Virus record (IMG/VR): IMGVR_UViG_2648501235_000003
Coordinates: 1 to 24,792 of that record
Origin: a virus
Lineage: Duplodnaviria > Heunggongvirae > Uroviricota > Caudoviricetes
Reading direction: 5' to 3' (one strand)
Length of the DNA: 24,792 nt
This document shows, one piece after another, positions 8,674-17,524 of this stretch. The notes beneath the pieces were generated by a model. The model was not told where the DNA came from. It saw nothing but the letters and a program-made list of their open reading frames with translations, and searched no databases. Made by a program: the position numbers and the translations under genes. How positions within the stretch are numbered: the first letter of the stretch is position 1; each line of letters opens with the position of its first letter.

Positions 8674-11600
8674 TCAGCATTCCTCCGTCACGTCGCATGG
8701 ACAGCATCACCGCCTGCACCCGCTGGTCAATCAGCTGCACAAGACTGCCTGCCGCCTCCGGCCCTATCTGGCCATTAGTCCCGTCATTCTGAATGGCGAT
8801 ATGGTAGACCGGGGAATACACCAGACCCGCACTACCGTTCATACTGCCCACCGCTCGCACACCCAGCGAGCCATCCGCCGCCCGGGTCAGGGGCATAATG
8901 GCTTCAGGACCGGCCTCCCCCATCAGTCCCGCCCCTTTTGCAAAGGCAAAGTACGTGGGCGTATCCACAATACTGTTGCTGTACGCACTCAGGTTTGCCG
9001 AGGTATACACGCCGCCTTTTGCATTGGCCACCGCTCCGCCCAGCCAGTCACCAATGCTGCCGAGAAATCCTCCCGCACCGGACATACCGTTTGCCGCCGT
9101 CTTAATTCCGTTGACAATCGCGGCATTCATAAGAACTTTTGATATTTCCTGCAGGATTGATGCAGCCCAGCTGCGCCATTCCACTTTATTTCCGTTCAGC
9201 ATCTCCGTGATGTTATTCACCATCCCTGAGATACCGTCTGTCGCAAGCTGTGCTGCCTGTGAGGCGTAATCGGACGCATTATCCACCCAGTTACTGAATC
9301 CCTCCTGCAGCCCTTTCTGCCAGTCCGCACGCTGCACATCCGATTCGGCATAAAAGGCTTCCTGCTCTTTCAGACGTTCACTCAGATACTGTGCATTCTG
9401 CGCCAGCGCCTGTCTGTAAAAATCCTCACTGATATCCCCGGTCTGATACTGAGACTGAAGGTCCGCATCCTTCTGGCGGAAGCTGTCGCGGATCTGCTGC
9501 AACTCCCGCATGCGTTCCCTGGCCCGTTCTCCCTGCCCGTACCCCAGCAGTTCGGCTTCATTTGATGCACGCGCAGCCACATTCTCATTCTTCAGGGTCT
9601 CTTCCCGGGATCGCAACTGTTCCCGGATTTTTTGCTGGTCAATCAGGGCCGCGTTACGCAGCAGCTCCTGCTTCTGTATCTCCGACAGGGTTTTCAGTTC
9701 ACCCAGCGCTGTCTGGTACTTCAGCTTCGCCAGCTCCGTGTTCTGACCGGCCAGTGCCAGTTGCTCTTTCTGCTGCTTCAGCAGCCGGGAAAAACTGTCT
9801 TCCGCTTTTTCCGTTTCTGATTTTCCACCCCGGGATTTAGGTTTGTTCGCCTCGTTATTACGCCAGGCTTCCAGAGCATTACTGATATAACGCTGTCTCG
9901 CCTCCTGATACGGATCCCCCACAAAACCGAGGTCATCCGCCGCATACCCCAGCCGGGCACGCTCTTTTTCTTCCCCTTTCAGTCTGGACAGGGCCAGCTC
10001 ACGCTCTGTTTTTGTCAGGGCACTCTGCTGTTTATCATCCAGAGTGGCCTGTGGCAGCCGTAACGGCACATTCACCAGTCCCTGCCGCTGCTGAAGCAGT
10101 TCATTACCCAGCCCCAGCAGACGGTTGAATTCCGTATGCTGACCGTTCATAACCAGCATGGACTGGTACACCTTATTCTGCTCTGCCGCCTGCTGACGAA
10201 TTAACGCCACACGACGGTCTTCCAGCCCGGCAAGCACATCCTGAATGGACTGCGCTTTTTCCTGCATCTGTGCCAGACGGGACTGCTCAACGGCAAGCTG
10301 CTCTGTTGCCTGAGCAAGCCCTTCCGTTACGGTCTTCACCGAGGTCAGATGGTTTATCATGAATCCGTCACCGGTCGTCCAGCCCGGGTTCGCCAGAACA
10401 TACTGATATCCTGCGATTTTTTCCTGCAGGGATTTCACCCGACTGGCCTGTTCATCAATCAGCCGGTTCTGCTCTGTCAGCGCCGCCCGTGTTCGTCCTT
10501 CATTATCTGAGGCTTCAGGCAGAGACATTGACGGCGTTTTATGCGCGATTTCATCTATCGTCAGTGCATACTGGCGCGCAGACTCCCTGGCCTGCTCCTG
10601 ATTCTGGTACAGCGTGTACCATGCTGCAGCCCCCAGCATCACCAGTCCGGGTACGCCACCAACCAGCCCCAGCGCACCGCTCATCAGACGTGAGCCCACC
10701 GCCGTTGTACTGTTCAGCGCATTCTGGGCGGCGCTTCTGGCAGCAATATTTCTGTTCAGGCGTTCCTGTGTGGCCGCCAGACGGGCCTCTGCAGCAATCT
10801 GCATCTCCGTCCCGCGGGCTGCCGCCACGGCCTGCTGAGCACGGTACACGGCTGCCCTTGCCCGCGCCGTGGCAATCTGCGTTCCCCTGAACTGTGCTTC
10901 CGCCAGTGCAACTTCATTACGTGCAGCCGTCACAAGTCCTGCCGTGGCAGACATCGCTCCGGAGGCCATATTGCCAAAGTACCGGGCCACCCCGACGGCA
11001 ACCAGTGCCCCCACGGCTGTTGCCACATTATCAATCTGTCCGGCAACACCGTTCAGCATGCCGGAGAGCGTTTTTGTCACCCCGCTGGCCTCATTCGCAC
11101 CGCCCACCCAGGCCATAAAGGCGTTTTCCACCTTTGTGATCCCGTCAGAGACCGTTTCTGGCATGGCGGCATATTCATCACGCAATGTCCCCAGCTGGCT
11201 GATTAACGCGGGCACGACTTTATCCGCCGTCAGTTGACCATCGTCCGCCATCGCCTTCAGATCTTTACGGGCCACGCCCATGCCTGCAGCCAGTGCACGA
11301 ATGATCCGGTCACCACTTTCATTGACCGAATTAAATTCCTCACCGCGCAACACACCCTGTGCCAGCGCCTGGCTGAACTGGGTGATCACCGAACCCGCCT
11401 CAGCCGTACTGGCACCGGAGATTTTCAGCCCCGTGGAAATGGCCTCCGTCACCTTCAGTACATCACCGGCACTGTAACCATATTCACGCATCGAGGCTGC
11501 CGAACGGGCAAACAGGGCCGCATTATCCGAAAAAGCGGTACCTGTCCGCTGACTGATATCCATCAGCACTTTCTGTGATGACGAAAATTCATCGGATGAC

Positions 11601-11908
11601 TGTGATGCCTGTTTCAGACGGGCATTCACGGAACTCCACTCATCAGCCAATGAAATCAGGTGTCCGGTGGCAAAGGCACCGGCAAATGCGCCAGCCATTC
11701 CGACAGCCGAAGCGCGGATTTCCGTCAACTGGCTGTTCAGTTCTGCCAGGGCACGTCGCTGCTCCCGGGCTGCCGCAGCGGCCTGACGCCCGCCATTCTG
11801 CAGGGTCCGGTAATATTCACTGCCCATACGGGAAGCCCGCTGGATCTCCGACTGGAATGACTGTGAATTTGCCGAAATTTTGATAATCAGTTCACGTAAC
11901 GTCGCCAT
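8666..11908 (-). CDS. H: Tail tape measure protein H
   Basis: 1080 aa, MATLRELIIKISANSQSFQSE..., coiled-coil and Gly/Ala-rich segments typical of tape measure proteins; ATG at 11908 preceded by GGAGAAAGGTGA. Confidence 0.92.
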   Translation of the reverse strand: MATLRELIIKISANSQSFQSEIQRASRMGSEYYRTLQNGGRQAAAAAREQRRALAELNSQLTEIRASAVGMAGAFAGAFATGHLISLADEWSSVNARLKQASQSSDEFSSSQKVLMDISQRTGTAFSDNAALFARSAASMREYGYSAGDVLKVTEAISTGLKISGASTAEAGSVITQFSQALAQGVLRGEEFNSVNESGDRIIRALAAGMGVARKDLKAMADDGQLTADKVVPALISQLGTLRDEYAAMPETVSDGITKVENAFMAWVGGANEASGVTKTLSGMLNGVAGQIDNVATAVGALVAVGVARYFGNMASGAMSATAGLVTAARNEVALAEAQFRGTQIATARARAAVYRAQQAVAAARGTEMQIAAEARLAATQERLNRNIAARSAAQNALNSTTAVGSRLMSGALGLVGGVPGLVMLGAAAWYTLYQNQEQARESARQYALTIDEIAHKTPSMSLPEASDNEGRTRAALTEQNRLIDEQASRVKSLQEKIAGYQYVLANPGWTTGDGFMINHLTSVKTVTEGLAQATEQLAVEQSRLAQMQEKAQSIQDVLAGLEDRRVALIRQQAAEQNKVYQSMLVMNGQHTEFNRLLGLGNELLQQRQGLVNVPLRLPQATLDDKQQSALTKTERELALSRLKGEEKERARLGYAADDLGFVGDPYQEARQRYISNALEAWRNNEANKPKSRGGKSETEKAEDSFSRLLKQQKEQLALAGQNTELAKLKYQTALGELKTLSEIQKQELLRNAALIDQQKIREQLRSREETLKNENVAARASNEAELLGYGQGERARERMRELQQIRDSFRQKDADLQSQYQTGDISEDFYRQALAQNAQYLSERLKEQEAFYAESDVQRADWQKGLQEGFSNWVDNASDYASQAAQLATDGISGMVNNITEMLNGNKVEWRSWAASILQEISKVLMNAAIVNGIKTAANGMSGAGGFLGSIGDWLGGAVANAKGGVYTSANLSAYSNSIVDTPTYFAFAKGAGLMGEAGPEAIMPLTRAADGSLGVRAVGSMNGSAGLVYSPVYHIAIQNDGTNGQIGPEAAGSLVQLIDQRVQAVMLSMRRDGGMLSG

Positions 11909-11955
11909 TCACCTTTCTCCGGGCGTAAAAAAACCGCCTCAGCGGTTCTCATCAT

Positions 11956-12635
11956 TCATGACTGTGCTGCAAAGCTCAGCGCGTCTTCCAGCGCCGCAAA
12001 CGGATCCACCTCCGGCTTATCCTCATCCTCGCCCCAGCAGAGCATGGCGTCCTTCAGTGCAACATTCATCCCCTGTGCCCCGAAAACCGCTTTCACGATC
12101 TGTGCATTACGGATATCCCCGCGCTCATCACCCAGCGGGGACACCCTGTCAAACTCCATCCACATCATCGCCTCGCTCGCACTCAGGCTGTGCCGCAGTT
12201 CGGATAAGGTGCGCCCCAGACGGAGCGCAAGTCGCATCAGAAAGCGAATTTCCGGGCGGGCTACTTTTTTCTGGCCGACTCTGCATCAGCGATCAGTTCC
12301 AGTGCCTGACGCAGCAACCGGGCATGTACCGGACCATAGACGGCCAGCACCTGCTCACGGTCGTCCGGAGTGAACACCCGTTGCAGGTCAGTATCACACA
12401 GGACATCGCAGAACAGCGTCACATCCGCTTCCAGGTTACGGCGGGTTTTCGCCACCACCGACAGGGTATCGTCATCCTCTCCATCACCATTGAGCACTTC
12501 CTGCCACAGATACCAGGCCTCTGCCGAAGGCTCCCGCAGCACCACGCTGACATTTCCCCATTCCGGCACCTTCACCGTTTTATGACGGAACCCTGACAGT
12601 CTGGCCAGCGCCAGTGTTTTCAGATCTTTTGCCAT
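11956..12635 (-). CDS. GT: G-T tail assembly chaperone fusion made by -1 programmed ribosomal frameshift; T-frame part is 11956-12270
   Basis: The ORF downstream of G (MRLALRLGRTLSE...) is in the -1 frame relative to G and is reachable by slipping at the A_AAA_AAG heptamer at the end of G. Confidence 0.7.
12261..12635 (-). CDS. G: Tail assembly chaperone G
   Basis: 124 aa, MAKDLKTLALARLSGF...ADAESARKK; sits between the major tail protein and the tape measure as in lambda; ATG at 12635. Confidence 0.85.
   Translation of the reverse strand: MAKDLKTLALARLSGFRHKTVKVPEWGNVSVVLREPSAEAWYLWQEVLNGDGEDDDTLSVVAKTRRNLEADVTLFCDVLCDTDLQRVFTPDDREQVLAVYGPVHARLLRQALELIADAESARKK
12264..12270 (-). other. Slippery heptamer A_AAA_AAG for the G to GT -1 frameshift
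   Basis: Minus strand reads GCC AGA AAA AAG TAG; the heptamer A AAA AAG is in the G zero frame immediately before its stop codon. Confidence 0.7.
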
Positions 12636-12640
12636 AAGCC

Positions 12641-13357
12641 TTATCCGCCCGCACCATTAACCGTTACTGTACACGCATCAGAGGTAATGCTCTGCGGCTG
12701 TTCTGCAGAATCCGTTACCTCGCAGGTATAAGCCCCCTTATCACCTGACTGCGTATTGGCTTTACTGAAAGTGTCAGTAGTCTGTCCCTCTACCGGCTGA
12801 CCATCCTTCTTCCAGGCGTGTTTATAAGGCGGCGTTCCCCCGTTGACACTGACTGACATTGTCAGCAGCGCACCGGTATTCACGGTAAGTGTCTTCTCCA
12901 GATTTTTCACAAACGCCAGCGGTACCACATAGGACACCGGTTTACCCTTCAGGCGAAGTGAAAACGTTGCAGCCACCACGCCGTTGGTACCGGATGACCA
13001 GGTGTGCTGACGCACTTCCGCCAGGAACTTAAAGCCCTTACCGGACGGAAACTGCACCTTAAACGCATACACCGTGTCATTGTCATAGGCATCACGCAGG
13101 GCGTTCTGGGCCTGATTCAGATAAAAATTACCCGACATGGAAATCTCGGACGACGCCCCCAGACCGTTGATGTTCTCCTGCTCCGTGGAGCAGAGCGTGG
13201 TCACATCAATATCCTGTTTCTGCCCGGCGGTGAACTGGACTTCCTTGATGGTGCAGTCCAGGCGCAGATATTCCGCCTTATCCATAGTTTCAGCAGTCGC
13301 CGGGGCAGATGAAATCATCACCTGCGTCAGCTGTGAGCGTTCATACAAAGCAGACAT
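12641..13357 (-). CDS. Major tail tube protein with C-terminal Ig-like domain
   Basis: 238 aa immediately upstream of G/GT; C-terminal region (...GTPPYKHAWKKDGQPVEG...GDKGAYTCEVTD...) has an Ig-like sequence pattern; ATG at 13357 with AGGAGG 5 nt upstream. Confidence 0.8.
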   Translation of the reverse strand: MSALYERSQLTQVMISSAPATAETMDKAEYLRLDCTIKEVQFTAGQKQDIDVTTLCSTEQENINGLGASSEISMSGNFYLNQAQNALRDAYDNDTVYAFKVQFPSGKGFKFLAEVRQHTWSSGTNGVVAATFSLRLKGKPVSYVVPLAFVKNLEKTLTVNTGALLTMSVSVNGGTPPYKHAWKKDGQPVEGQTTDTFSKANTQSGDKGAYTCEVTDSAEQPQSITSDACTVTVNGAGG

Positions 13358-13373
13358 TCTGCCTCCTGATAAT

Positions 13374-13393
13374 AAAAAAACCGCACGCGGCGG
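13374..13393 (-). promoter_or_regulatory. Short hairpin plus U7 leader element immediately upstream of the major tail gene Shine-Dalgarno
   Basis: Minus strand CCGC-cgcgt-GCGG TTTTTTT ATTATCAGGAGGCAG A ATG; closely resembles the leader upstream of the capsid gene at 19478-19500. Confidence 0.4.
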
Positions 13394-13423
13394 GGTATGG
13401 GTTTTGTAGAAAAAAAGAAAAAG

Positions 13424-13768
13424 TCACACCGTGACCTGAAACTCCAGGGTTGCACGGTAACAGCGGTTTTCCGGAATATAGTCCTGCATTTCACTGACGG
13501 ATCCCGGGGCCAGCAGCATTATGGCTTCACGGGCGTCCTGACGTATCTGACGCGCCTGCGTCACAGTCCCGGCATAAACGTCTATCTGCACCGACACTGA
13601 GGACTCCGCCTGCCCGCCCATCACGTCCGCAGACACCGATGAAATCAGGCTGAAAACCACCCACGGAAGCGCCACCGACGGCCTGCCATCCAGCAGGGGG
13701 ACCACATACGGGTACACCTGCCCGCCGGCAAGATGCGCCAGATGAGGATACAAATCCGCCTCCGTCAT
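13424..13768 (-). CDS. Tail terminator / tail completion protein (DUF3168-like)
   Basis: 114 aa; position directly upstream of the major tail gene; ATGA overlap with the upstream gene; sequence pattern resembles DUF3168 as I recall it. Confidence 0.6.
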   Translation of the reverse strand: MTEADLYPHLAHLAGGQVYPYVVPLLDGRPSVALPWVVFSLISSVSADVMGGQAESSVSVQIDVYAGTVTQARQIRQDAREAIMLLAPGSVSEMQDYIPENRCYRATLEFQVTV

Positions 13769-14211
13769 CGTCTCAGTACCTCATCAATGGCCCGGTTCAT
13801 CCGAGCAATCGCCACCTGTGCTGCCTGTTCACTGCGCACATCAAATGCCGGACGCACAAACGGGTGCGGTGGCATATTCACGGTCCCCATTTCCACAAAC
13901 CGCCAGTAGAAAGCATTGCGCGGGTTATCCGCCTTCATGGTGTTATCGCTGTTACCGGTGTCCGGATTAACACCACGGATATGGACACCGGATTCCATCC
14001 CGCCATCGCGGGAGCGCCGGGAAAGGACCACCACATTGCGGCGCAGTTTCCCCCTGCGTACCGGTGCCCGTGACACCACTTCTTCTTTCAGCACATTCGC
14101 CCCCGCACGGGTTGCCTCACGCAGCACCCGGTTATTTTCTGCACCACTCAGAAGCTGCAAATCGCGGCTGATGTCCTCCAGCCCCGAAAAATCCAGCAGG
14201 GTTTCGATCAT
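13765..14211 (-). CDS. HK97 gp10-like tail component protein
   Basis: 148 aa with C-terminal ...FVEMGTVNMPPHPFVRPAFD motif typical of the HK97 gp10 family; ATGA overlaps at both ends. Confidence 0.7.
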   Translation of the reverse strand: MIETLLDFSGLEDISRDLQLLSGAENNRVLREATRAGANVLKEEVVSRAPVRRGKLRRNVVVLSRRSRDGGMESGVHIRGVNPDTGNSDNTMKADNPRNAFYWRFVEMGTVNMPPHPFVRPAFDVRSEQAAQVAIARMNRAIDEVLRR

Positions 14212-14558
14212 TTTTCACCTCCCAGCCGACAGAGAATTTCCAGACGTCCGCCGGTCGCATCCGGCACGGGCAGCCCGACAACGTTCAGGATCCGGTCACG
14301 CCAGGGACCACTCAGCACATGAAGTCGTGACGCTGCCGTGATTTCCCGACCGGACTGACCGCGCACCCAGATGCGGATTTCCGCCTGCGCCATTTCCGCA
14401 CCGGACTGCATCCGCTCCCGGCTGCTCCTGCCACGGATATCCGCATGAATTTTCCCGCATGACACCCATTCTTCCGTCATTTCTCCGGCAGCATTACGGG
14501 TTAACACCGGGTTCAGAACACTTATCATCTGTGTCAGACGACCTGCAGATATTGCCAT
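14208..14558 (-). CDS. Head closure / head-tail joining protein
   Basis: 116 aa; position between connector and gp10-like genes; strong GAGGAGGGGG Shine-Dalgarno before ATG 14558. Confidence 0.6.
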   Translation of the reverse strand: MAISAGRLTQMISVLNPVLTRNAAGEMTEEWVSCGKIHADIRGRSSRERMQSGAEMAQAEIRIWVRGQSGREITAASRLHVLSGPWRDRILNVVGLPVPDATGGRLEILCRLGGEK

Positions 14559-14567
14559 TCCCCCTCC

Positions 14568-14894
14568 TCATAACACCGTCGGACAACGCAAATCGTAAAT
14601 CAGCACGGAAACAGAAAACGGCAGCTCCCCCTGAATCAGTTCTTCCCGCTCCGCAAGATCCGGATTCCGGTACAGCATCCCGGTCAGTCGCATGGCAGCC
14701 CCCTTCATCCGGGTTAATGCCTCGCCCGGGATCAGTTCACCGTCCTCACGAATCACCTTATCCCGGCTGCCCTGAATGTAGGCCAGCAGCACGGCGGTAG
14801 CCTGACGAACCTTGTCCATCAGCATGTCATCATCCGCGTCATGGTCGACACGCAGATGTGCCTTGATCTCTTCCAGTGTCAGTAATGCCGTCAT
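14568..14894 (-). CDS. Head-tail connector protein (HK97 gp6-like)
   Basis: 108 aa starting MTALLTLEEIKAHLRVDHDADDDMLMDKV, a characteristic gp6-like N-terminus; ATGA overlap with the upstream gene. Confidence 0.7.
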   Translation of the reverse strand: MTALLTLEEIKAHLRVDHDADDDMLMDKVRQATAVLLAYIQGSRDKVIREDGELIPGEALTRMKGAAMRLTGMLYRNPDLAEREELIQGELPFSVSVLIYDLRCPTVL

Positions 14895-15952
14895 TTTCCG
14901 CCTCCAGCATCCCGTCCCCGTTTGGCAGCCAGCGTCCAGCCAGATGCATGCGCATCCCCCGGTTTATCGGCGGTCATACTGTTGCAGTGCCACAGCGAGC
15001 CCCCCCACGTCACCGTATCGCCGGGGTGGTAGGTTTCACCGGCTCTGAACACTCCGCGGTAGAGCATCACCGGCAGGGAAAATGTTTTTTCCGTACACTG
15101 GCCACTGCTCTGCCGGATCACCACAGAGAACAACCGCTCACCCGTCATACTGACGTCAATATCCGCCACCCCGTCAACCAGGCATTCCCATCCCCGCATC
15201 CCGTGCGTTTTTTCATACGCCCGCCAGAGTCCTCCAAGGTGTGTGGCATACGTGCCCCGGGGAAAGGATTTTTGATCGTCAATGGCGGGGAGCACTTCCA
15301 GTGCCGTGGCATCACGCCCGTCCTGCGGAGCCGGCAGGGCATTCACCGCCTCCAGAACCGCCTTCCGCAGAACATCGGGATCGAAGTCACGACCATCACG
15401 CGGAACGGGAATATGGCTTACAGCCTCTTTCACCATCTGCTCAAGCATCGGACGCACATCATCGGGGGTGATACTTTTGCCGTCCGCCGGTACCGGAATT
15501 CTCCCGACCGCATCATTCACCGCCTGCTTCAGTACTTCCGGATCGTAATCACGACCATCGCGGGGAGCTGGAATATGGCCCACTGCCTCCGCCACCATCT
15601 GCTCAAGCATCGGACGCACATCATCGGGGGTAATACTTTTGCCGTCCGCCGGTACCGGAATATTCGCAACCGCATCATTCACCGCCTGCTGCAGTACATC
15701 CGGATCATAATCACGACCATCACGCGGTACCGGAATGGCCCCCACAGCGTCATCCACCATCGCCTGCAGAACCGGACGCACCTCATCCACCGTCACATGC
15801 TTCTGTAATACCGCCGACAGGGAAGTCAGTTTCTCTTCAAACGCTTGTGCCTGCGAGGCCATCTTCCCCTCAAATGTGCGCTGTAAATCCGCCAGCACCG
15901 TGGAGAATTCTTCACCCAGCGCACGGATAATGGACAGTTCACGCTCTGTCAT
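14891..15952 (-). CDS. Hypothetical head-module protein with three tandem 54-aa repeats
   Basis: 353 aa; ATG at 15952 overlaps the portal stop (ATGA); coiled-coil-like N-terminus, three repeats with motif IPVPRDGRDYDPDVL...AVNDAV...IPVPADGKSITPDDVRPMLEQMV, then a Trp/Gly-rich C-terminal domain. Confidence 0.7.
   Translation of the reverse strand: MTERELSIIRALGEEFSTVLADLQRTFEGKMASQAQAFEEKLTSLSAVLQKHVTVDEVRPVLQAMVDDAVGAIPVPRDGRDYDPDVLQQAVNDAVANIPVPADGKSITPDDVRPMLEQMVAEAVGHIPAPRDGRDYDPEVLKQAVNDAVGRIPVPADGKSITPDDVRPMLEQMVKEAVSHIPVPRDGRDFDPDVLRKAVLEAVNALPAPQDGRDATALEVLPAIDDQKSFPRGTYATHLGGLWRAYEKTHGMRGWECLVDGVADIDVSMTGERLFSVVIRQSSGQCTEKTFSLPVMLYRGVFRAGETYHPGDTVTWGGSLWHCNSMTADKPGDAHASGWTLAAKRGRDAGGGK
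15302..15787 (-). repeat. Tandem 162-bp in-frame coding repeats (about 3 copies)
   Basis: caccatctgctcaagcatcggacgcacatcatcggggg occurs at 15431 and 15593 (period 162 nt); a third, more diverged copy lies upstream. Confidence 0.8.
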
Positions 15953-17313
15953 TTTCGCAGTATCCCCCTCAACATCGCTTTCACCGCACCATGCTCTGTT
16001 TCACTGATTGCCTTATTACCGTCAGATGCGCCGTCAGGCAGTTGGGCTGAAACTCTTTTCCCGGACGACGCAAACGGATCTTCACGGGCATCACGACGGG
16101 ACAGCGCCTCCAGACTGTAGTTCTGCTGCTGAAGATACAGTGCATCACCGCCGGCAAGGGGCGGCAGGTTCTCACGTTTACGGGCCTCATTGGGCGTGAG
16201 AAGCGTATTTTTCACCGACTCACCCAGCGTTTTCATGCGCCGTTCGCTGTCCATTCTCAGCAGCGTGGTGACGTCAAACTCCGTACTCTCGTTTTCCCCC
16301 GTTTCCAGCGCCTCATCCAGTAACAGCTCAATGGACTCAATCAGCGTCTGCAGACACTGGGAATAATACTGCTGCTCCAGCGCCTCCACGTTGTCACTGG
16401 AAGGCGGCTGGCCAACGCCAATCTTGTAGGCCGGGACACGGAACACCGAACAGACAATTTCAGCCGTCATCTTCAGTTGTTCCACCGTCTGCGCATCCAC
16501 CGGTGAAAACGTCGTGGGGTTATATTTCGCCCCGTTGCTCAGGATCGCCGTTTTCCCCGCATTTTCGCCGGTATACCCGCTGTCCCAGTTGCTCTTCAGT
16601 TTTTTCGCATTTTCTTCCGTTATACTGCCGGGGATCTCAATCACCCCGGACGGCCTGCCGCCATTTCTGAAAAAAGACGTTGAATTTGCCTGAATATGAT
16701 GCCCCTGCGTGGCCGCCAGCCCGGCGGCATACACCGGCGGCAGCCCCACAAGCGGATGAAAAAAACAGTTAAACCGGTCGTGGATCACTTCCCTGGCAGG
16801 CACCGTCACCGCCTCCGTGATCCCGCAGTTCCGGTCCGGCGTGATGCGGTAGAACACCTCGCCGTCATCCGCCACCAGAGGTTCAACCCGGCTCCAGTCC
16901 AGAATACGCAGTTCTTTGATCTGCCCCCGGGAGTTACGGATTTTCAGCACCACCGTATTGCCGTGACGCAGTTTGGCGTTCAGCCACAGTTCAAAAAACT
17001 GGATACGATTCTGCTGTGCATTGGGACGACGACAGAGACGGGCAATATCCCCCTGCCGTTTTTCACGGCGGATCCCCTGTGTATCCGTCTGCATCAGGCG
17101 CAGCCGCATTTTGGCGATATCCTGGGATATCAGCGAAATGCAAGAAAACACCGCATGAAAGGAGAGGACACTTTCCGGATCGGCTTTCACCCCCTGCTGC
17201 CAGGCGCCGGCAAAGGGCTCAGCCACCGCCTGAAACAGGCTGGTCCAGCCCACCTCTTTTACATCACGTCCTGATTTCTGGTTTTTTCGGGTTCGTCGCA
17301 AAAAGTTCCACAT
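15949..17313 (-). CDS. Portal protein (HK97-family)
   Basis: 454 aa with FFRNGGRPSGVIE and flanking motifs characteristic of HK97-type portals; ATG at 17313. Confidence 0.85.
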   Translation of the reverse strand: MWNFLRRTRKNQKSGRDVKEVGWTSLFQAVAEPFAGAWQQGVKADPESVLSFHAVFSCISLISQDIAKMRLRLMQTDTQGIRREKRQGDIARLCRRPNAQQNRIQFFELWLNAKLRHGNTVVLKIRNSRGQIKELRILDWSRVEPLVADDGEVFYRITPDRNCGITEAVTVPAREVIHDRFNCFFHPLVGLPPVYAAGLAATQGHHIQANSTSFFRNGGRPSGVIEIPGSITEENAKKLKSNWDSGYTGENAGKTAILSNGAKYNPTTFSPVDAQTVEQLKMTAEIVCSVFRVPAYKIGVGQPPSSDNVEALEQQYYSQCLQTLIESIELLLDEALETGENESTEFDVTTLLRMDSERRMKTLGESVKNTLLTPNEARKRENLPPLAGGDALYLQQQNYSLEALSRRDAREDPFASSGKRVSAQLPDGASDGNKAISETEHGAVKAMLRGILRK

Positions 17314-17524
17314 TCGCTATGCTCCGCATCATGTTTCTTTTTCTGACCCGCCGGACGTCGCGCTGTGATGTACTCCGCCTTCCTCAGGCGAACCAGCACC
17401 TCCGCACACGGCTGTGCGACATCCCGGATATCCCCGGGCCGGGCATCATGTGTACCCTGCAGATATCGGATTTTTGCCATCAGTTACTGCGGGACGCTCT
17501 CACCTCCCGCCCTCCTCATCAGAC

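Follow-up and report, generated by a model that had tools for sequence, protein, structure and literature searches.

Putative terminators have been marked inside the late operons of lambdoid phages since the HK97 genome (NC_002167; Juhala et al. 2000), where they lie at 3309-3335 before the protease-capsid pair, at 6692-6719 between the tail terminator gene and the major tail subunit gene, at 8398-8422 before the tape measure gene and at 15107-15129 before J. In lambda, hairpins occupy the D-E and I-J gaps of the Q-antiterminated late operon: GGCCGC-CTGT-GCGGCT with T7 stands 9 nt before the start of the major capsid gene E, and AACCGCC-TGCG-GGCGGTT with a T-rich tail precedes J. A Rho-independent terminator has likewise been predicted at a module end of the P22-like phage L, within a late operon that has a single promoter and is antiterminated; the authors of that work state that it is not known what terminators inside late operons do, and propose that they either act partially or stop spurious transcription that is not antiterminated (PMC8022706). 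The leader element analysed here is real, conserved and largely ordinary, being of this already known kind. What we add is modest, namely its fixed positions, the covariation of its stem, its spacing from the upstream stop codon and a naturally weakened allele.

The window, that is, the whole stretch of DNA that was analysed (24,792 nt; IMG/VR record IMGVR_UViG_2648501235_000003), represents the late region, with virion and lysis genes, of an EHEC-type lambdoid prophage, and its tail region is 99% identical to those of Stx1a- and Stx2c-converting phages. All structural genes are carried on the minus strand, in the following order:

Head part, minus strand: small terminase, large terminase, a 645-aa fusion of prohead protease and HK97-type capsid protein, a 73-aa ORF, portal.
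Middle part, after the portal gene, minus strand: a 353-aa repeat protein, connector, head completion, gp10-like, tail completion.
Tail part, minus strand: tail tube, G, T, tape measure, M, L, K, I, J, lom, fibre.

T is reached only via a frameshift, and the slippery AAAAAAG of the G/T frameshift lies at 12270-12264. Q and pR' lie outside the window, and the placement of these genes downstream of Q is taken from the Stx1a phage LC567831 (tail region 99% identical), in which Q, stx1, lysis, terminase, capsid and tail genes are arranged on one strand. A search of the coding strand from 5000 to 24792 returned no sigma-70-like promoter matching at least 10 of 12 positions, the sole coding-strand match reaching 9/12. 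Six of the seven operon gaps of at least 44 nt hold a unit of hairpin and T-run, and the remaining junctions are overlaps or gaps ranging from a few bases to 23 nt.

The tail-tube leader and its surroundings comprise the following features:

13424-13768, minus strand: tail-completion gene (gp17-like), whose stop precedes the tail leader.
13421-13437, minus strand: upstream hairpin GGTCAC-GGT-GTGAC(TT), overlapping the tail-completion TGA.
13408-13420, minus strand: U-rich tract T5CT7, after the upstream hairpin.
13358-13423, minus strand: intergenic tail-tube leader.
13381-13393, minus strand: proximal hairpin CCGC-CGCGT-GCGG, with 4 bp in the window.
13374-13380, minus strand: T7 abutting the proximal hairpin, at once a terminator U-tract and an A/U-rich tract before the Shine-Dalgarno (SD) sequence.
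13358-13373, minus strand: ATTATC, the SD AGGAGG (13367-13362) and CAGA, that is, spacers and SD.
12641-13357, minus strand: tail tube (major tail) gene, 238 aa, with its ATG at 13357.

Read 5' to 3' on the coding strand, the leader opens with GGTCAC-GGT-GTGAC over the TGA, followed by TTTTTCTTTTTTT and CTACAAAACCCATAC, and continues with CCGC-CGCGT-GCGG, TTTTTTT, ATTATC, AGGAGG, CAGA and the ATG, so that AGGAGG stands 4 nt from the start codon. The encoded protein has Phage_TTP_11, Phage_tail_2 and Ig domains, and its relatives are annotated as major tail protein. A second hairpin with a U-rich tract over the upstream stop, described in an earlier note on this DNA, was found as claimed (stem 13437-13421, TGA 13426-13424, T5CT7 13420-13408). 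It folds at -6.3 kcal/mol (z -2.3; 5/200 shuffles equally stable), and one compensatory change, G-C to A-U, occurs in the relative L064; since it is lost in L018-type relatives and is not present in other genera, this upstream hairpin is lineage-specific.

The GC hairpin that the note had placed directly before the tail gene is also present, but with only 4 bp in the window compared with 5 bp in relatives. At -5.2 kcal/mol it is matched in stability by 53/200 shuffles, whereas the consensus tail hairpin of relatives has 5-7 bp and -8.5 to -10.6 kcal/mol, and that of HK97 reaches -16.1 kcal/mol. Among 80 close relatives, all leader variants spanning the proximal hairpin have the 5-bp stem CCCGC/GCGGG. 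The stem-weakening G-to-T variant of the window (GCGGT) was matched in 1 IMG/VR contig only, and none of the complete E. coli genomes is identical to the window across the weakened stretch. With 4 bp and a stability no better than that of shuffled sequences, this copy may therefore be a poor terminator. The initiation regions are otherwise mostly unstructured, and the 3' half of the SD in the tail leader can pair with codons 2-4. A conserved hairpin around the tail-tube start codon was considered and rejected: in the window this region folds as GAGGCAGA-AUG-UCUGCUUU at -10 kcal/mol, distant relatives showed no significant structure at this place (nearly all z between -1.7 and +1.3), and it is lineage-specific at best.

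The capsid leader is built in the same way:

19526-21187, minus strand: large terminase gene, whose stop lies 24 nt before the capsid leader.
19484-19501, minus strand: capsid-leader hairpin GAACCGC-TGCG-GCGGTTT, 7 bp, -10.8 kcal/mol.
19480-19486, minus strand: T7 of the capsid leader, its first three T paired in the stem.
19463-19479, minus strand: ATTTTC, AGGAGG (19473-19468) and CTGAT, that is, spacers and SD.
17525-19462, minus strand: prohead protease-major capsid fusion gene, 645 aa, with its GTG start at 19462.

From 5' to 3' it reads TAA, 24 nt, GAACCGC-TGCG-GCGGTTT(TTTT), ATTTTC, AGGAGG, CTGAT and GTG, with 5 nt between AGGAGG and the GTG, and in the predicted fold the A/U tract is unpaired 3' of the hairpin. 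The hairpin claimed for this leader was thus recovered, and the T5 claimed after it is in fact T7 (19486-19480). Similarly, the gene is a capsid gene, as had been said, and is more precisely a GTG-started protease-capsid fusion with Peptidase_S78 and Phage_capsid domains, whose 645-aa homologues are named major capsid protein. A hairpin lacking a U-run is also seen 3' of the capsid gene, at 17512-17489.

The striking similarity that the earlier note had reported between the two leaders is borne out. The sequence GCGGTTTTTTTATTWTCAGGAGGCWG is common to 13359-13384 and 19465-19490 on the minus strand, with 24/26 positions identical; this 26-mer has exactly 2 matches in the window, had 0 in 100 dinucleotide-preserving shuffles and was recovered also as repeat family D12. 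A third copy, and similar units of hairpin and T-run, occur on the same strand:

11927-11950, minus strand: third hairpin, GAGAACCGC-TGAG-GCGGTTTTT, with T7 (11933-11927), 9 bp, -10.4 kcal/mol (repeat D20).
6095-6128, minus strand: hairpin GCAGGCACC-CGGTGA-GGTGCCTGT with a T-rich tail, before J, with counterparts in lambda and HK97.
2606-2634, minus strand: hairpin with T6, between J and lom.
1928-1960, minus strand: hairpin with T6, between lom and the tail-fibre gene.

The third hairpin, which in full reads GAGAACCGC-TGAG-GCGGTTTTTTT (11950-11927), lies 5 nt 3' of the T-gene stop and is followed by the tape-measure GGAG (11920-11917) and ATG (11908). Its GAACCGCTGAGGCGGTTTTTTT is identical to the capsid hairpin at 22/23 positions. 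The string GCGGTTTTTTT (GCGGT7) occurs four times on the minus strand of the window and not at all on the plus strand, and in the tail, capsid and tape-measure copies, all on the coding strand, T7 directly abuts the stem and the loop measures 4-5 nt. In describing a terminator-like structure joined to a strong ribosome-binding site, the note was right: stem, abutting T7 and AGGAGG are all there. The notion of a cassette reserved for the two virion proteins of highest abundance does not hold, because the hairpins also precede the low-copy tape measure, J, lom and fibre genes. Only 2-3/200 shuffles were as stable as the capsid (7 bp) and tape-measure (9 bp) hairpins.

We then asked where such leaders occur among relatives, sampling tail-tube loci (one genome for each species), IMG/VR capsid loci and long loci with both genes. 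The leaders came from E. coli, Salmonella/Enterobacter-type phages, Klebsiella, Serratia, Symbiopectobacterium, Kosakonia, Brenneria and Providencia, and we counted distinct leaders of Enterobacterales relatives with a terminator-like hairpin no more than 70 nt upstream of the gene. Such a hairpin was found in 32/33 capsid, 48/49 tail-tube and 40/42 tape-measure leaders, so the recurrence before structural genes of related phages, which the note had put forward as a check, was observed. By the same count, no leader of TerL, p73, portal, p353, connector, gp10-like, tail completion or T had one. All diverse tail-tube homologues (56-84% amino acid identity, nine genera) have a GC hairpin, a T-run and GGAG upstream, and homologues of the capsid fusion (about 75% identity) and of the tape measure are likewise preceded by a hairpin and T-run. 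The leader is present in 1245/5426 complete E. coli genomes, Shiga-toxin phages included. The Sakai prophage Sp15 has a lambda-type head/tail module without these leaders. No hairpin was found in the Burkholderia phage vB_SBP33, whose capsid protein has 39% amino acid identity and whose terminase and protease genes overlap, so that the capsid-leader element is confined to the enterobacterial lineage sampled.

The stems themselves vary among relatives (CCCGC/GCGGG, CCGCC/GGCGG, CCCGGC/GCCGGG, CCACC/GGTGG), and the capsid hairpin is kept as ACCCGC-N4-GCGGGT at about 75% amino acid identity. A covariance model (R1) built from tail leaders only finds the capsid leader of the window at 42.7 bits; tape-measure leaders score lower and antisense sequences at most 15 bits. 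Across the 50 best model matches, 93.4% of cells were paired, compared with 38-49% when the 3' partner column was slid; this alignment was fitted to the model structure, which favours that structure, and the raw leaders show the same compensations by eye. Compensatory double changes were seen in 5/7 stem pairs, and 0/500 shuffles attained the observed value. The position-specific presence of the element, together with these compensatory changes, indicates that the unit of hairpin and ribosome-binding site is maintained by selection.

This pattern bears on the idea that the hairpins are DNA-level linkers or scars of moron insertion at module boundaries, which would promote or record recombination and have no RNA function. 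The sites do fall at mosaic joints, one capsid module being combined with tube genes of 47-83% identity; the homology of L066 ends just upstream of the hairpin, and the HK97 tape-measure terminator follows the gp15 moron. However, what is conserved is the pairing and not the sequence, the opposite of what a homology-based linker needs, and strict strand orientation and the U-tract are left unexplained. The window, moreover, has no moron between T and the tape measure gene, yet the hairpin is there. We regard this explanation as highly improbable.

The elements occupy the sizeable intergenic gaps and are oriented with late transcription. We think it reasonably probable that they are intrinsic (Rho-independent) terminators kept within the lambdoid late operon, with translation starting de novo right after each of them. 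Because a GC stem with an abutting U-run is found on the transcribed strand only and its pairing is kept by compensation, the predicted identity as intrinsic terminators has good support in the family as a whole and less in the mutated tail copy of the window. The likeliest role on this evidence would be insulation from non-antiterminated transcription. Polymerase without Q modification, arising from leakage past tR', read-in or spurious starts in the lysogen, would stop at the hairpins, and the virion genes would thereby stay silent; during lytic growth, Q-modified polymerase would pass through. According to the StxS report, pR' is constitutive in lysogens and halted at tR' (PMC7547250), and Q-loaded polymerase is described as passing terminators (PMC9388147). 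Since pR' is constitutive, the stems are short (5-9 bp) and Q-modified polymerase reads through, the insulator role appears the most economical. The lysis genes lie upstream of these hairpins in the relative LC567831, so the hairpins cannot guard against the most lethal leak. A Term-seq dataset for E. coli O157 Sakai is available from the StxS work (GSE143631; PMC7547250).

An alternative is that the sites are partial attenuators, at which even Q-modified polymerase would terminate modestly, so that mRNA dosage steps down along the operon and helps to set virion stoichiometry. For phage L, one of the two suggested roles is partial termination (PMC8022706); from the tape measure gene on through J, lom and fibre, the hairpins stand before genes of ever lower-copy products; and HK97 and some relatives have a hairpin after the tail-tube gene too (12/43 G leaders). 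Two of the three conserved sites, however, precede the highest-copy proteins and follow low-copy ones (terminase, tail completion), which is the wrong direction for such a gradient. The stems of 5-9 bp are also short, and resistance to processive antitermination depends on stem length, as described for one Gram-positive system only (PMC10325885). We therefore find attenuation doubtful. What tracks protein abundance, judging from the leaders, is SD strength and not the hairpin: capsid genes have AGGAGG or GGAGG, tube genes GGAG(A), with AGGAGG in the E. coli lineage, and tape-measure genes GGGTG, GGTG or GGAG. As SD strength drops from capsid to tube to tape measure, abundance appears to be encoded in the SD.

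The spacing between the upstream stop and the hairpin is consistent with a working terminator. To fold, a hairpin must lie beyond the stretch covered by a terminating ribosome. Where the upstream gene (terminase, tail completion) is fully translated, the hairpin starts a median of 17-18 nt past its stop, and at the T-to-tape-measure junction, a small sample of 11 distinct leaders, it starts 1 nt after the T stop; this stop-to-hairpin spacing fits a terminator that has to fold clear of the terminating ribosome. On the other side, 17-24 nt separate the end of the hairpin from the start codon at each of the three junctions, which places the U-tract directly 5' of the SD. Translational coupling across a 60-nt gap is ruled out, and the downstream gene must therefore have a start site of its own. 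The tracts directly 5' of the SD, UUUUUUUAUUAUC and UUUUUUUAUUUUC, are A/U-rich; U7AUUAUC and U7AUUUUC are 12/13 A/U and abut AGGAGG. In the read-through mRNA, the U-tract would thus occupy about positions -23 to -16 relative to the start codon, immediately before AGGAGG, and the two together would make an initiation region of A/U-rich enhancer plus optimal SD. Vimberg et al. 2007 (PMC2176067) rank AGGAGG as the most efficient SD in E. coli and report that strong SDs and A/U-rich enhancers cooperate. The U-tract and AGGAGG are compatible with a near-optimal start site of this type.

These features could also be read as a translation-initiation device, in which the U-tract serves as an S1/standby site, the hairpin keeps it single-stranded and shields it from the coding RNA upstream, and the likeness to a terminator is incidental. 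The tight distance of 17-24 nt between hairpin end and start codon at three junctions, the 12/13 A/U tracts abutting AGGAGG, the cooperation of A/U-rich enhancers with strong SDs (PMC2176067) and the mostly unstructured initiation regions all agree with it. Such an enhancer, though, needs no abutting GC-rich stem, and yet the stem is invariant and covarying; hairpin and U-run also precede the weak-SD, low-copy tape measure gene (GGGTG/GGTG) and occur where no start site lies immediately downstream, for example after gp5 of HK97. We consider this reading quite improbable.

A broader proposal, which we regard as possible but unlikely, treats each element as a dual-use module that combines a prophage fail-safe terminator, an S1/standby platform after Q read-through, ribosome-tuned spacing, and exchange or convergence between junctions. 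In other phages, capsid- and tail-type proteins are sensed by abortive-infection systems. Serial fail-safe termination in the prophage would silence the costly capsid, tail-tube and tape-measure genes; after Q read-through, the U-tract would act as a platform for translation at a very high level. The distance from stop to hairpin, about 17 nt behind translated genes and about 1 nt behind the frameshift-only T, would be tuned to the footprint of the terminating ribosome. Exchange of the module between junctions, or convergence, would explain the 24/26 identity.

Under the preferred terminator reading, that identity would simply reflect two copies near a composite consensus and not a dedicated two-gene regulator. 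In Salmonella/Enterobacter-type phages, the capsid leader and the tube leader of one genome resemble each other no more than leaders taken from different genomes do. We accordingly rejected concerted evolution and a phage-specific factor binding both leaders as unsupported, and the absence of special same-genome likeness in other lineages argues against a dedicated regulator of the two genes.

A processing or stability function has also to be weighed, with the hairpins acting as 3' exonuclease barriers or 5' stabilisers that split the late transcript of about 25 kb by half-life. The hairpins do flank functional blocks (terminase; head; tube-G-T; tape measure onward), and the hairpin after the capsid gene at 17512-17489 has no U-run. 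A 3' barrier, however, would protect the upstream low-copy genes and not those of the capsid or tube, the invariant adjoining U-tract would be unnecessary for a stabiliser, and no Rfam processing-site family was matched. We hold this very improbable. The Rfam search of the whole window gave 0 matches at the gathering score. Identity with isrK (RF01394), which alone came up below threshold in permissive searches, was rejected, its scores being 27.1 bits for the tape-measure leader and 15.4 for the capsid leader against a gathering score of 50, mostly from the terminator stem; it is further disfavoured by the fact that IsrK is a pR'-proximal RNA adjoining antQ and does not lie between structural genes. 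The prophage Pas sRNAs (Storz lab preprint) were set aside as well, being located in the Q/lysis region and not at these junctions. In the Hfq-CRAC table of Tree et al., only peaks lying antisense to coding regions or over 100 bp away from them are listed, so these leaders fall outside it.

In summary, where the earlier note had listed attenuation, stability and enhancement without choosing among them, identity as a terminator is what we retain, an enhancer contribution is compatible with it and a processing site found no support. The family offers a clean test bed for the terminator role, with its three fixed positions, natural stem covariation, weakened allele and occurrence in 1245/5426 genomes. 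Knowing whether such hairpins insulate or shape expression would improve the annotation of transcription units in prophages, and knowing the terminator role would help in designing expression constructs based on phages; the present view of late gene control would stay unchanged.

Compared with the systems described, the elements resemble several and coincide with few. At tR' of Stx phages, Q is reported to override an intrinsic terminator in the late unit (StxS; PMC7547250), and the products terminated at such sites can be Hfq-binding RNAs, as reported for StxS (PMC7547250) and Gifsy-1 IsrK (PMC4825925). The tR' and IsrK terminators, however, lie right after pR', beside Q, and yield a short RNA, whereas the window elements lie 9-25 kb downstream, between structural genes. 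In Tn916 (PMC11658703) and conAn (PMC8191782), terminators are reported to block premature expression, and element-encoded antitermination passes several of them; these are Gram-positive conjugative elements with unrelated antitermination factors, and their terminators are not known to be coupled to ribosome-binding sites. The A/U enhancer with AGGAGG of Vimberg et al. 2007 (PMC2176067) is matched by the 13-nt tract, 12/13 A/U, before AGGAGG, but in the window this tract doubles as the U-tail of a predicted terminator hairpin.

Among phages, the terminator of phage L belongs to a podovirus with unrelated genes and is a prediction made without conservation or covariation analysis. Lambda differs in having no hairpin before V (7-nt gap) or H, so the element is not essential for a lambdoid tail operon; its E gene has a weak SD and then a second T7, and its record has no annotation at the hairpin sites. 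HK97 differs in having separate protease and capsid genes, portal and not terminase upstream, extra putative terminators after the capsid and tube genes, and GGAGA as the tube SD where the window has AGGAGG. Its tail site nevertheless reads AACCCGCC-AGAT-GGCGGGTT, TTCTTTTT, CCAGGAGACAGCT and ATG, and scores 50.8 bits with the tail-leader model R1. By position and by sequence, the tail-tube hairpin of the window is orthologous to the HK97 putative terminator at 6692-6719.

Analysis of the tail and capsid leaders, in which a terminator-like hairpin with a U-run precedes the Shine-Dalgarno (SD) sequence, found that 15-30 nt of spacer separate the upstream stop codon from the hairpin; in most lineages this spacer appears C/A-rich and almost devoid of G, as in CCCACACCATCACCATCC and CACACCATCAGCC. 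Window positions 13394-13407 and 19502-19525 and the relatives' loci collected for leader comparison (L161-L183) provide examples. Such a spacer could help the C-rich 5' arm of the hairpin to fold cleanly.

Three further sites in the window carry a hairpin or a leader-like motif:

24429-24461, minus strand: hairpin with a 15-bp stem, AAAACCCCGTTTGTTGGCAGCAAGCGGGGTTTT, and a T-rich tail, located between ORFs on the 5' side of the terminase genes
17489-17512, minus strand: GCGGGA-N10-TCCCGC, a hairpin lacking a U-run, directly 3' of the capsid gene in a gap of 44 nt
19533-19543, minus strand: fourth copy of GCGGTTTTTTT, inside the codons for the large terminase C-terminus (...EYAVFFI*)

The first of these is the top terminator-like site of the whole window and, because A- and T-runs lie on its flanks, is possibly bidirectional. 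The hairpin behind the capsid gene could act as an mRNA 3' stabiliser. No convincing hairpin was found at the fourth GCGGTTTTTTT copy, and relatives have GAGGTTTTTTT at this position of the large terminase 3' end.

The 239-nt gap between genes I and J (window 6063-6301) is homologous to the same gap of prophage Sp15 of E. coli O157 Sakai (NC_002695, 2902691-2902930), within which a published Hfq-CRAC peak, EcOnc22, lies at Sakai 2902714-2902774. In Sp15, EcOnc22 runs antisense to the late operon and coincides with the position of the J-leader hairpin; a northern blot sized it at ~85 nt, and loss of hfq destabilises it. Two plus-strand features were located inside the gap in the window:

6166-6193, plus strand: promoter-like site
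6273-6299, plus strand: hairpin followed by a T-run

Within the coding regions, the G-like chaperone gene carries AAAAAAG (12264-12270, minus strand) directly 5' of its TAG stop. The T ORF lies in frame -1, and this heptamer is expected to be the G/T programmed frameshift site. Repeats were observed as follows:

14891-15952, minus strand: 353-aa ORF flanked by the portal and connector genes
842-1171: collagen-like 9-nt periodic repeats coding for Gly-X-Y, within the tail-fibre gene
1-50 and 142-191: exact 50-nt direct repeat at the left end of the window

At 15345-15830 the 353-aa ORF, which had zero matches in Pfam, carries a 162-nt (54-aa) unit three times in tandem (identity 100/83/63%), and its 1224-nt homologue in the Stx1a phage LC567831 is longer by exactly one repeat unit.

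In the window's lineage, the tail-tube start region (13340-13367, minus strand) is predicted to fold as GAGGCAGA-AUG-UCUGCUUU at -10 kcal/mol, so that a 3-nt loop holds the start codon and the 3' half of the SD is paired. The distant relatives compared showed no counterpart of this fold, and HK97-type leaders have a weaker one, AGACA-GCUA-UGUCU.
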